DNA of 27,497 nt from an uncultured Opitutales bacterium. GTDB lineage: Bacteria; Verrucomicrobiota; Verrucomicrobiia; Opitutales; JBHJGM01. Made by a program: the position numbers and the translations under genes. The notes under the pieces are model-generated. The model made no database searches and was not told the origin of the DNA. It saw only the letters and a list, made by a program, of their open reading frames with translations. Below are positions 6,042-8,496 of the stretch, in pieces. The stretch covers positions 1 through 27,497 of the forward strand of contig CAYOPI010000016.1 of the NCBI GenBank assembly GCA_964405825.1, given 5' to 3'. Position 1 is the stretch's first letter. Every line of letters begins with the position of its first letter.

Positions 6042-7559
6042 ATGATGCCCATCAAGTATGTACACATCCCGTATGAGCACTTCGGACTGGCGTATCGCGA
6101 CGGTCGTTTCGCCCAACTGCTCACGCCGGGGCGCTACCTCAAGCTCCAGCCCTTCTCCAACCTGCGGGTGGAAAAGGCCTGGCAGGGGCAGCCCTGGATC
6201 CTGCGTCCGACCGCCGAACTGCGCCAGCTGCGCGAGTCCGAAGCCGTTGGCGAAGTTGCCGCGTTCGTTGACCTGAAGGACACCCAGCGCGCGCTGGTCT
6301 GGCTGGACGGCCGCTTCGGCGGGTTTCTCAGCGCCGGGCTGCACGCGTACTGGAAGACCCGCGTCGACGTGCGTATCGAGAGCATCGATACGCGCGAACC
6401 CCGTCTCGACCACGCCGACGCCGACCTCATCGTCAAGCACGCGGAGGCCACCGAGTTTCTCCACGTCTTCGAGGTGGCCGAGCACCGCGGGATCGTCGTC
6501 TACGTCAACGGCCGTTTCCACGACGCGCATGGTCCCGGCCTGCACGGTTACTGGAAAAGCGGCCTGAAGGTGACCGCGCTCCCCTTCGCCCTGCCCTGGC
6601 TCGGTCTGCCCGAGCCCGAACTCAAGCAGCTGCGCCAGAGCGGGGCCCTGGACGAGAAAGTCGCCTACGTTGACGTCAGCGACACCGAGCGCGCCCTGGT
6701 CTGGTTCAACGGCCGCTTCAGCGGAATCCTTGGACCCGGCAGCTACGGCTACTGGAAGGAAGGCTACAACGCCCGAATCCAGCGCCTGGACGCTTCGGAC
6801 CCTCGCCTCGTCCGCGAGGACTTCGAGGTGATCACCCGGCACGCCGACGCGGAACGTTTCATCGACGTTCACAACATCGGCGACGGTGAGGTCGCGGTCC
6901 TGTACCTCGGCGGACAGTTCGAGGAAGTTCTGGAGGCCGGGCGCTACGCCTTCTGGAAAGGCGTCGGCTCGGTGCGGCTGTACCCGTACAACCTGCGCGA
7001 GAAGGTCCTCGACGTCAGCGGTCAGGAAATCATGACCGCCGACAAGGTGACCCTCCGCCTCAACGCGGTCCTGTCCTACCGCATCGCCGATGTGCGCAAG
7101 GTGGCTGAAACCGTGGCCGATCCCGAACAGGCGATCTACCGCGAGCTTCAGCTCATTGTGCGTGCCGAGGTCGGCGGGCGAAGCCTCGACCAGCTTCTGG
7201 CCGATAAAACCGCCGTCGCCAACGAGGCCTACCAGGCCATCCGCCAGAAGGCCGCGCAGTACGGCCTGGAGGTGCTCGGGCTGGGGATCCGCGATGTCAT
7301 CCTGCCGGGTGACATGAAGAGTCTGCTCAACCAGGTCATCGAGGCCGAGAAGGCCGCTCAGGCCAACATCATCAAACGCCGCGAGGAAACCGCGGCCCTC
7401 CGCAGCCAGATCAACTCGGCCAGGCTCATCGAGCAGAACCCGACCCTGCTGCGACTGCGCGAACTCGAGTCGCTCGAGAAGATCACCGAAAAGGCAGAAC
7501 TGAAAATCTTCGTTGGGGAGGATCAGACGCTGTCCAAGCGAATCGTCAAGATCGTGTAA
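6042..7559 (+). CDS. SPFH/band-7 (stomatin/flotillin-like) protein with five tandem copies of the SPFH N-terminal motif and no transmembrane helix
   Basis: The C-terminal 220 aa have band-7 core and coiled-coil signatures (...EKAAQANIIKRREETAALRSQ...). N-terminal repeat units carry G-(R/Q)-F-x3-(L)-x2-G-x3-(Y/F)-W-K at about aa 22, 91, 158, 225 and 292. ATG at 6042 sits behind an AGGAAC RBS. The ORF track starts earlier, at 5829. Confidence 0.8.
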   Translation: MMPIKYVHIPYEHFGLAYRDGRFAQLLTPGRYLKLQPFSNLRVEKAWQGQPWILRPTAELRQLRESEAVGEVAAFVDLKDTQRALVWLDGRFGGFLSAGLHAYWKTRVDVRIESIDTREPRLDHADADLIVKHAEATEFLHVFEVAEHRGIVVYVNGRFHDAHGPGLHGYWKSGLKVTALPFALPWLGLPEPELKQLRQSGALDEKVAYVDVSDTERALVWFNGRFSGILGPGSYGYWKEGYNARIQRLDASDPRLVREDFEVITRHADAERFIDVHNIGDGEVAVLYLGGQFEEVLEAGRYAFWKGVGSVRLYPYNLREKVLDVSGQEIMTADKVTLRLNAVLSYRIADVRKVAETVADPEQAIYRELQLIVRAEVGGRSLDQLLADKTAVANEAYQAIRQKAAQYGLEVLGLGIRDVILPGDMKSLLNQVIEAEKAAQANIIKRREETAALRSQINSARLIEQNPTLLRLRELESLEKITEKAELKIFVGEDQTLSKRIVKIV

Positions 7560-7562
7560 CCC

Positions 7563-7605
7563 GGTCCCGGAGGCCCAATCACTCCGGGACCATTCTCTTT
7601 CGCTT
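7563..7605 (+). terminator. Intrinsic terminator candidate after the SPFH gene, with a second 9-bp hairpin at 7607..7629
   Basis: GGTCCCGGAG-(9-nt loop)-CTCCGGGACC followed by ATTCTCTTTCGCTTT. Then GGGGACGGC-acggt-GCCGTCCCC. Confidence 0.5.
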
Positions 7606-7656
7606 TGGGGACGGCACGGTGCCGTCCCCGAAATCAAACCAAACCTACGAAAAAGT

Positions 7657-8433
7657 ATGAATGCTCGCTTGTTCGAAAAAATGGGCGCAGCCATTCAGGT
7701 CAGCCACGGAGGTGTCATCGACCTGGCTCACGTGACCGATCACAACACCATCCCGGGCCTGTCCGTGGACGTGCGCGAAAACACCTTCACGGTCACTCTG
7801 CCCGCGCGGGTCGAGATCACCGTGCTGCAAGCCGACGTCAAGAACCGCCACCTGCTGATGATGGCCCGTGACACCGAGCGAGGCGTCAACCAGAAGTTCC
7901 TCTGCGGCCTGGATGAACGCGACTGGTTCGTGGCTTCGGTGCCCTCGGCGACGATCAGCGTCGAGGATGCCAAGCAACGCCTGATGCCGCCGGAAGCGCG
8001 TCAGTCGCAGATCGGCAACCGCGTCAAGGCATCGCAGCGCCACCGCCGTCACAATCGCGGCTTCATCCGCCAGGGCGAGTGGTTCTTCATCCCCGCCCAC
8101 ACGATCACCATCGACGCGCAACGCGTGCTGCGCAACGAACCGCTCAGCCGCGGCGGCAAGCCGCACTGGGTCGAGCAACTCTACCGCACCGGCGGCGAGA
8201 GCGTTCAGGTACACGCGCAGTTCGCTCCCGAGGGGATCACCCGGGCCGGGTTCGGCAAGCTCAGCGAAAAGCAACGCCGCACGCCGGGCTGGCAATCGAT
8301 GAAGCGCAACCCCGCCGTTTACGCCCGCGGCAAGGTGCGTCACCCGGACCACAAGACGATCCGTCTGCACGACTGGCACCTGGTTCGTCTCAACCGCGAG
8401 CAACGCCCGCGCTCGCTGGCGTTCCTGGACTGA
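7657..8433 (+). CDS. Hypothetical protein (258 aa, basic, no recognisable domain), downstream partner of the SPFH gene
   Basis: ORF in a coding-like frame. Start ATG 7657 (MNARLFEKMG); ATG 7681 is an alternative. Its C-terminal ~25 aa are duplicated as the remnant at 3635..3742. Confidence 0.6.
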   Translation: MNARLFEKMGAAIQVSHGGVIDLAHVTDHNTIPGLSVDVRENTFTVTLPARVEITVLQADVKNRHLLMMARDTERGVNQKFLCGLDERDWFVASVPSATISVEDAKQRLMPPEARQSQIGNRVKASQRHRRHNRGFIRQGEWFFIPAHTITIDAQRVLRNEPLSRGGKPHWVEQLYRTGGESVQVHAQFAPEGITRAGFGKLSEKQRRTPGWQSMKRNPAVYARGKVRHPDHKTIRLHDWHLVRLNREQRPRSLAFLD

Positions 8434-8457
8434 TCTGAAGCAGGCATGCGCCTTAAA

Positions 8458-8496
8458 GGGCGGCCGGCCCGTCCGGTCGCCCTTCCCACTTTCCTC
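8458..8496 (+). terminator. Terminator-like GC hairpin after 7657..8433
   Basis: GGGCGGCCGG-cccgt-CCGGTCGCCC (10 bp with one G:U) followed by the T-rich stretch TTCCCACTTTCCTC. Confidence 0.4.

Follow-up and report, generated by a model that had tools for sequence, protein, structure and literature searches.

We analysed a 27,497-nt contig of an uncultured Opitutales bacterium (CAYOPI010000016.1, assembly GCA_964405825.1; the whole contig is referred to here as the window), in which a gene for a soluble SPFH/Band-7 protein is followed by an open reading frame (ORF) for a protein of 258 residues, which we call X. A preliminary description of this DNA had proposed that the two genes form an uncharacterised two-gene unit, and the arrangement that it gave is correct: the ORF lies 3' of the SPFH gene on the same strand, past a 97-nt spacer with two hairpins. 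The spacer has a minimum free energy of −46.9 kcal/mol (z = −5.6; none of 200 shuffled sequences folds as well) and its hairpins are of 10 bp (7563-7591) and 13 bp (7604-7632), neither with a U-tract after it. Upstream of the SPFH gene lies an array of eleven tRNA genes, the last three of which are tRNA-like, and further upstream a decayed copy of the 3' end of the X gene. This remnant, the array, the SPFH gene, the spacer, X, the hairpin 3' of X and the DUF4034 gene that follows are all on the plus strand (Table 1).

X is a member of a large, unnamed family of bacterial and phage proteins for which no matched structure was found in PDB or BFVD. A word-indexed search returned 1,649 relatives at E ≤ 1e-3, the closest non-identical one at E 1.3e-94; each is labelled hypothetical, and no Pfam domain was seen in any. 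An exhaustive profile search returned 2,624 representatives of clusters at 50% identity, of which 613 reach E ≤ 1e-30. The relatives occur in at least 531 species-representative genomes, mostly of Verrucomicrobiota and Planctomycetota with some of Acidobacteriota, Bacteroidota and others (Chthoniobacter flavus, Brevifollis gellanilyticus and Limnoglobus roseus are cultured examples), and the 150 best-scoring members are single-domain proteins of ~200-360 residues, mostly 250-300. A further 88 relatives were found on IMG/VR viral contigs, many of which exceed 100 kb; tblastn searches of cultured phage genomes and of plasmids gave no match. X itself has no match in Pfam, NCBIfam, PADLOC or PHROGs, and its best match among PDB sequences, by phmmer and by profile, has an E-value of 0.43, which is not significant. 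The AlphaFold2 (AF2) model of X has a mean predicted local distance difference test (pLDDT) score of 91.9, and Foldseek found no analogue of it in PDB (best E 0.16) or BFVD (best E 0.03). The proposals that X is uncharacterised and that it is not NfeD-like, having neither an NfeD nor any other Pfam match, are borne out, and no assignment to a known housekeeping family was obtained, since X has no family assignment at all. No P-loop and no similarity to nucleases or recombinases were found in X. The folds that we considered for it were 2H phosphoesterase (for the H-x-T motif), PD-(D/E)xK nuclease, and cupin or Fe(II)/2-oxoglutarate dioxygenase (for H-x-D...H). The divergent viral relatives match only phrog_29643 and phrog_7247, both of unknown function; on the viral contigs L139, L151, L162 and L147 (loci are given by L numbers) the protein carries an extra N-terminal domain with the motif YSYG(S/T)H(W/F)PL, which corresponds to phrog_7247, and the X core corresponds to phrog_29643.

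We defined the family by the pattern G-x-D-E...F, A...L-x-P, RQGEWFF, H170, H-x-(D/E)-H-x-T, N-x-E and a C-terminal Asp in a protein of ~250-300 residues. The X of the window fits this definition and carries every invariant column of both alignments that were made, one of 36 sequences and one widened by viral relatives at 20-28% identity. In the 36-sequence alignment it keeps 39 of the 39 invariant columns, and the conserved blocks read CGxDERxWF, A...LxP, a basic linker, RQGEWFF, EP...GKPH, RHxDHxT, WHxVxxNxE and a C-terminal FLD. In the widened alignment 13 columns stay invariant down to 20% identity (D86, F91, A105, L109, R138-F144, H232 and the terminal Asp), and G84, E87, H170, H229, W240, N246 and E248 are nearly invariant, viral relatives included. 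X is strongly basic, in agreement with the preliminary description, with an isoelectric point (pI) of 10.8 against a family median of 10.2 and a family range of 9.4-11.2. Its basic segment, residues 124-146, holds RQGEWFF, which is the most conserved motif of the family.

The genomic neighbourhood of X was surveyed at 80 species-representative loci. At least three tRNA genes were present within 5 kb of X at 29 of the 80 loci and at least ten at 13, and tRNA genes flanked X on both sides at 15 loci. All 312 tRNA genes counted near X lie on X's own strand. Up to 3 kb from X they occur at 6.1 per 10 kb, vs 0.47 per 10 kb at distances beyond 7 kb. X sits inside arrays as large as 37 (L002), 30 (L019) and 29 (L021) tRNA genes. 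The other neighbours are RtcB (20 loci), HNH (21), Ro60/TROVE-vWA (15, confirmed by Pfam), RlaP (9) and SPFH (8), all of which share the strand of X with the exception of one Ro60. Where at least 5 kb of sequence was available on both sides, an array or a repair gene was found at 21 of 39 loci. At least six genomes have X between RlaP and RtcB: the three genes follow one another without interruption in L001 (the same place as L011), L010, L029, L058 and L085, and in L007 an HNH gene lies between X and RtcB. The link to tRNA genes holds on the viral contigs too, also for divergent relatives: of the 80 loci kept, 28 have at least three tRNA genes close to X, 271 of 280 nearby tRNA genes are on X's strand, and Ro60-like genes recur near X.

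Two loci are particularly informative. In L165 (4436-12412), with an X 54% identical to that of the window, an rtcR gene stands divergent to a series that runs, in this order, Ro60/TROVE-vWA, X, two YrlA-like RNAs (9140-9248 and 9399-9538; E 7.7e-11 and 1.3e-4, respectively, both below the Rfam gathering score), RtcA and RtcB. L165 is thus a complete RtcR-controlled RNA-repair operon of the classical kind carrying an inserted X. L003, from an Opitutales metagenome-assembled genome (MAG), has an X 56% identical to that of the window and is the closest relative with genomic context; it carries the tRNA-like trio, SPFH and X in this order, with RtcB directly after X. The order SPFH then X recurs only there, and the other X loci either have SPFH on the downstream side of X and HNH or lack it. 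At five Verrucomicrobiota loci (L030 239-330, L039 3009-3100, L045 291-385, L065 9578-9670 and L071 5625-5715) we observed a class-II tRNA-Ser-like cloverleaf directly 5' of X, with an anticodon loop of CGA or UGA, an aberrant T loop, an encoded CCA end and compensatory changes in the variable and T arms, which neither Rfam nor ARAGORN called. Next comes a small basic ORF (MKPTIRYQSQLL.RRSYKPNR...), the stop codon of which overlaps the ATG of X.

The SPFH protein belongs to the SPFH/Band-7 superfamily by its PF01145 match on residues 279-449 (E 5.5e-32; 111.7 bits against a cut-off of 23.6). Its repeat expansion, noted in the preliminary description, was confirmed by an ungapped 129-residue internal duplication (residues 57-185 vs 191-319, 40% identity, E 1e-36) and by the AF2 model (pLDDT 86), in which five successive five-stranded beta modules (~4-47, 73-116, 140-183, 207-250 and 274-317) form the N-terminal part; the fifth runs into the canonical alpha/beta SPFH fold, which is followed by a long C-terminal helix or coiled coil. 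Most relatives are 366-371 residues long, one unit shorter, and the 505-residue form is confined to ~six proteins of Puniceicoccaceae/Opitutales. No transmembrane segment is present in the window protein, as the maximum hydropathy over 19 residues is only 1.0, and the SPFH proteins at X loci are of two types, a soluble repeat-bearing one as in the window and a membrane-anchored one. We also surveyed four loci from the SPFH side (L168-L171; SPFH 45-65% identical to that of the window), among them Cerasicoccus fimbriatus, with the same 505-residue architecture, and Puniceicoccus vermicola. tRNA genes lie directly 5' of SPFH in three of the four, as two nine-gene arrays and one single tRNA, and an HNH gene is present in L168; no annotated X-like gene was found within 7 kb of SPFH in any of them. 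SPFH and X are therefore not an obligate two-gene unit as had been proposed, with SPFH within 5 kb of X in only 8 of 80 genomes and no annotated X-like gene within 7 kb of SPFH in these four. Viewed from the SPFH side, the constant partner is the tRNA-like trio rather than X. In L171, the single tRNA directly upstream of the soluble SPFH gene is a tRNA-Cys, and type III CRISPR genes (weak Cas10 and RAMP Pfam matches) and a sigma-54 activator lie ~3 kb upstream of that SPFH gene (region 1-4121).

The tRNA array of the window consists of 11 same-strand genes with short spacers, compared to up to 43 genes in published L-arrays, and several of its members are aberrant. The Leu(CAG) gene is 77 nt long and has no long variable arm, a trait shared with L169, the Pro(TGG) gene is 98 nt long with a 10-bp extra arm, and the Lys(TTT) gene has C33. 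One tRNA has a 6-nt anticodon loop, several have acceptor-stem mismatches, and the CCA end is encoded in 6 of the 11 genes. From these aberrant members the array appears accessory in character. The last three genes are kept in the same register 5' of SPFH in the window, in L003 (6205-6425) and in L169 (6375-6601), and a three-way alignment of the trio has a mean column identity of 78%, most of the differences falling in the anticodon arms. The three genomes agree closely in the acceptor, D and T arms, and their anticodon arms are radically different: member 1 has a non-canonical loop in all three, the anticodon of member 2 is CTG, ATT or ACG, and that of member 3 is GAA, ATG or AAG. Because the bodies are conserved while the anticodon arms diverge completely between genera, the sequences suggest that the trio are decoy or sensor tRNA mimics under diversifying selection and not translational tRNAs.

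Table 1. Features of the tRNA array-SPFH-X locus and its borders (window positions).
Feature	Position	Strand	Remarks
DegT-type aminotransferase gene	stop at 3642	+	Pfam
Decayed 3'-end copy of X gene, ~33 codons and stop	3644..3745 (102 nt)	+	abuts DegT stop codon
Lower-GC non-coding DNA, ~790 nt	between X remnant and first tRNA		
Terminator-like hairpin GCCCAAGC...GCTTGGGC then TTTTTT	4328..4365	+	read from sequence; closes the region upstream of the array
Conserved non-coding element, candidate leader or regulatory RNA	4381..4485	+	just upstream of tRNA array
Near-perfect palindrome ACTTCAGTTCACTGAAGT, 7-nt perfect arms, candidate operator	4510..4527	.	8 nt before first tRNA
Eleven tRNA genes	4535-5612	+	ARAGORN; all above Rfam tRNA gathering score
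tRNA genes 1-8: His-GTG, Asp-GTC, Glu-TTC, Leu-CAG, Lys-TTT, Gln-TTG, Pro-TGG, Arg-ACG	4535..5290	+	ARAGORN, Rfam
Trio of tRNA-like genes directly upstream of SPFH	5386..5612	+	of the Band-7-associated tRNA type
Gap of 430 nt	last tRNA-like gene to SPFH start		
Soluble SPFH/Band-7 protein, 505 residues	6042..7559	+	PF01145
Two-hairpin spacer between SPFH and X, 97 nt	7560..7656	+	
Protein X, intact ORF of 258 residues	7657..8433	+	large unnamed family
GC-rich 12-bp hairpin 3' of X stop codon	8456..8484	+	fold of 8428-8552; U-tract weak
DUF4034/TPR-like protein	8550-9752	+	downstream of X

The non-coding DNA around these genes was inspected for regulatory features. The terminator-like hairpin upstream of the array has a counterpart in L003. 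The conserved element that follows it is 71% identical to L003 5880-6005 and matches no Rfam family; it aligns with L003 ~5905-6010 and L169 ~5600-5700, and the structure that RNAalifold predicts from just these 3 sequences contains three hairpins and 5 compensatory pairs. The palindrome just before the first tRNA gene occurs once in the window, with 0.01 matches expected by chance, and shows no clear conservation in L003 or L169. An Rfam scan of 3600-8600 found no Y RNA or other family besides the 11 tRNAs, a YrlA match of 22 bits being noise. The hairpin 3' of X probably marks the end of the operon.

The X remnant, placed 790 nt upstream of the first tRNA gene, is ~79% identical in DNA to 8322..8412, and its translation, ALGLVLQRDNKTIRLHHWHLVHLNHKERTRAS*, is 58% identical to the C-terminus of X over 31 residues (E 5.5e-5), without the invariant C-terminal FLD of the family. 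The preliminary description had taken it as evidence of a second copy of the locus; a paralogue remnant is indeed present, but only the 3' end of X was duplicated and no SPFH remnant was found near it. A weak tblastn match (E 0.04) had suggested a decayed HNH gene between the remnant and the array, which was rejected by a six-frame HNH profile search. A second C-terminal remnant of X, 44 residues ending in AFLD, lies between the intact X and RtcB in L017 (6177-6308), a Verrucomicrobiaceae MAG. Remnants were seen in only these 2 of ~170 loci.

Taking the anatomy of the locus and the family membership, genomic linkage, strand concordance, conservation and charge of X as observed, we consider it likely, with a probability of about 0.6, that the locus is a tRNA array-SPFH-X operon of the RNA-repair or translational-stress type, with RtcB missing within the window. 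The operon would be one same-strand unit of a leader region, the 11-gene accessory array with its tRNA-like trio, the soluble SPFH protein and X, and would belong to an RtcB-centred network that also includes Band-7 with tRNA-like RNA, Ro60 with Y RNA, RlaP, HNH and horizontally spread tRNA arrays. A single transcript is predicted for the array, SPFH and X, because a terminator-like hairpin precedes the array, a hairpin lies 3' of X, and no terminator-like site was found between the last tRNA and the stop codon of X on the plus strand. X itself is basic and probably acts on tRNA, possibly as a catalyst. It would be cytoplasmic and could bind tRNA or tRNA-like RNA through the Arg/Lys-rich linker and a RQGEWFF hairpin, and it could act on the bound RNAs through the conserved polar cluster of D86, RQGEWFF, H232, the C-terminal Asp, E87, H170, H229 and E248. 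Its likely role would be the processing or handling of damaged or array-derived tRNA ends beside RtcB, and its invariant C-terminal FLD may be a peptide for docking. The coiled coil of the SPFH protein probably mediates its oligomerisation into a scaffold for the tRNA-like RNAs.

Several points weigh against this interpretation. RtcB, RlaP, HNH and Ro60 were not found by phmmer anywhere in the window. Co-transcription with the array is deduced from strand and spacing, and no sigma-70-type promoter was found in 3600-8700. Catalysis and RNA binding by X are deduced from conservation and charge, since no relative of known function or fold is detectable. At the remaining loci with at least 5 kb on both sides, mostly of Planctomycetota, X stands alone, which applies to about half of the X loci; short contigs are common in the sample, and among those of IMG/VR some may represent proviruses or host DNA that was assigned wrongly.

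With regard to what X does, a non-catalytic role is a serious alternative, although we regard it as unlikely: X could be an RNA-binding cofactor or chaperone and would then define a third module of a protein and a tRNA-like RNA beside Ro60/Y RNA and Band-7/b7a-tRNA. The uniformly basic character of the family agrees with this, as do the conserved tRNA-Ser-like RNA 5' of X in the five Verrucomicrobiota loci, with its compensatory changes and encoded CCA, the two YrlA-like RNAs that follow X in L165, and the presence of the trio in the same unit as X in the window and L003. However, the tRNA-like partner varies among loci, and 13 columns, with Asp, Glu, His, Arg and Gln among them, stay invariant at identities as low as 20%, beside a fixed C-terminal Asp, which is more than is usual for scaffolds. 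At the other extreme, X may be an enzyme with a new fold that converts RNA ends, either an RNA 3'-kinase or a trimming RNase leaving a 3'-phosphate, which would fill a gap between RlaP and RtcB. In a 2025 preprint (PMC12776372) RlaP extends damaged tRNA halves and leaves a 3'-OH, while RtcB needs a 3'-phosphate or 2',3'-cyclic phosphate, and its authors see the need for an RNA 3'-kinase yet to be discovered or for a nuclease that trims and leaves a 3'-phosphate. The position of X between RlaP and RtcB fits such an enzyme, as do its basic character and its many conserved His, Asp, Glu and Arg residues; against it, X has no P-loop and is linked far more often to tRNA genes than to RlaP. We treat this specific role, which is improbable on balance, as a lead and not as a finding.

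The remaining two explanations are both less likely than a cofactor role. X could serve the mobility or maintenance of tRNA arrays, for example as a DNA-binding or recombination partner of an HNH homing endonuclease, and would then not be an RNA-acting repair factor. In favour of this, the gene closest to X on its downstream side encodes HNH at 8 of 80 loci and 21 loci have HNH within 5 kb, X is found at the borders of arrays and on phage contigs, the truncated 3' ends of X at a junction in the window and in L017 are what recombination scars would look like, and HNH enzymes have been proposed as spreaders of arrays (PMC8421152). The small number of remnants in ~170 loci does not favour this, nor does the lack of any detected nuclease or recombinase similarity, and X is also found alone, without HNH or array, in about half of the genomes, in RtcR-regulated rsr-rtcAB operons and in array-free RlaP-X-RtcB triads, so that we consider a role in array mobility rather doubtful. 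Very unlikely, in our view, is a defence or toxin-type two-gene system of SPFH and X in a defence island, a context that the preliminary description had suggested. The accessory context, also suggested there, stands, as the array is accessory in character with several aberrant tRNAs and lies beside a decayed paralogue; X homologues occur in phage contigs, and RNA-repair modules are counted among host-parasite conflict systems (PMC7824862). The defence island does not stand: a search of PADLOC-DB 2.0 at E ≤ 0.1 gave no match for SPFH, X or the downstream DUF4034 protein, and the flanks are ordinary chromosomal genes of metabolic or housekeeping type (Nramp, DegT, DUF4034, a glycyl-radical enzyme with its activase, and efflux components), which makes a defence island the wrong frame and an RNA-repair or translational-stress module the right one. 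Moreover, the pair is not co-conserved, X is often solitary without an antitoxin-like partner, and its neighbours are repair genes and not effector genes. The observation in the preliminary description is thus confirmed and its interpretation partly supported.

We compared the proposed RNA-repair operon with known systems, of which the locus is a variant, combining elements of known RNA-repair and tRNA-array modules. The rsr-yrlBA-rtcBA operon comprises Ro60, Y RNAs and RtcB/RtcA under the control of RtcR, in Salmonella and other bacteria. L165 resembles it closely, with an X homologue between Ro60 and two YrlA-like RNAs, RtcA and RtcB downstream and RtcR divergent; the differences are that none of its genes is present in the window and that X is not in the Salmonella operon. 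Modules of Band-7 with b7a-tRNA and RtcB, and of Ro60 with Y RNA and RtcB, are attributed to Burroughs & Aravind 2016 (NAR 44:8525) as cited in 10.1101/312249. As far as the Band-7 module is described there, the window resembles it in having tRNA-like genes directly 5' of SPFH, 430 nt upstream, and L003 in having SPFH with RtcB following within 1 kb, and the trio fits the Band-7-associated tRNA. The window differs in that it contains no RtcB, its SPFH protein is soluble with an extra duplicated N-terminal unit, and it has three tRNA-like genes and eight further tRNA genes vs one RNA; X is an addition that goes unmentioned in the module descriptions given by the citing papers. An SPFH gene within the rtc locus of P. 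aeruginosa has been reported independently (PMC13086221).

Long, horizontally spread tRNA arrays have been described in Verrucomicrobia, Planctomycetes and other phyla and are linked to HNH and rtcB, and in Anabaena such an array is co-regulated with HNH and rtcB and induced under translational stress (PMC8421152). There the TrcR repressor controls the tRNA operon, rtcB, HNH genes and an operon of a hypothetical gene plus slipin (PMC10272220). The dense same-strand array of the window, which appears accessory and has aberrant members, resembles these L-arrays, as does the linkage of X relatives to HNH and RtcB, and the Anabaena hypothetical-gene-plus-slipin operon, co-regulated with the array, may be comparable to SPFH-X. 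In contrast, the window array has only 11 genes and neither an HNH ORF nor an HNH remnant, the hosts are Verrucomicrobiota and Planctomycetota rather than cyanobacteria, and no X homologue was found on plasmids. SPFH-NfeD (slipin/stomatin) operons share with the window a same-strand partner gene 3' of SPFH, but X has no NfeD match, the window SPFH has no membrane anchor and the partner is not conserved.

Bacteria are known to respond to tRNA-cleaving toxins and translational stress with RtcB-centred RNA repair and with accessory tRNA arrays. To our knowledge, no test has been made of most accessory components of these responses, among them Band-7, its tRNA-like RNA and Ro60. The analysis adds X as a recurrent and very widespread component in Planctomycetes-Verrucomicrobia-Chlamydiae (PVC) bacteria, Acidobacteriota, Bacteroidota and large phages, which has neither a name nor a Pfam model, and it provides operons in which X can be studied, namely rsr-X-Y RNA-rtcAB, RlaP-X-RtcB and tRNA-like trio-SPFH-X-RtcB, so that the function of the family is now experimentally addressable. 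If X is an enzyme, it could explain how RlaP products become RtcB substrates, or how array tRNAs are processed, and if it is an RNA-binding cofactor, it would add a third protein-plus-tRNA-mimic module. The bodies of the trio are conserved and its anticodon arms change fast, which makes it a ready system for testing whether tRNA mimics act as decoys or sensors.

Unrelated to the locus, a glycyl-radical enzyme with PFL-like and Gly_radical domains adjoins its radical-SAM activase at 9894-12850 of the window, on the plus strand and downstream of the DUF4034/TPR-like protein.

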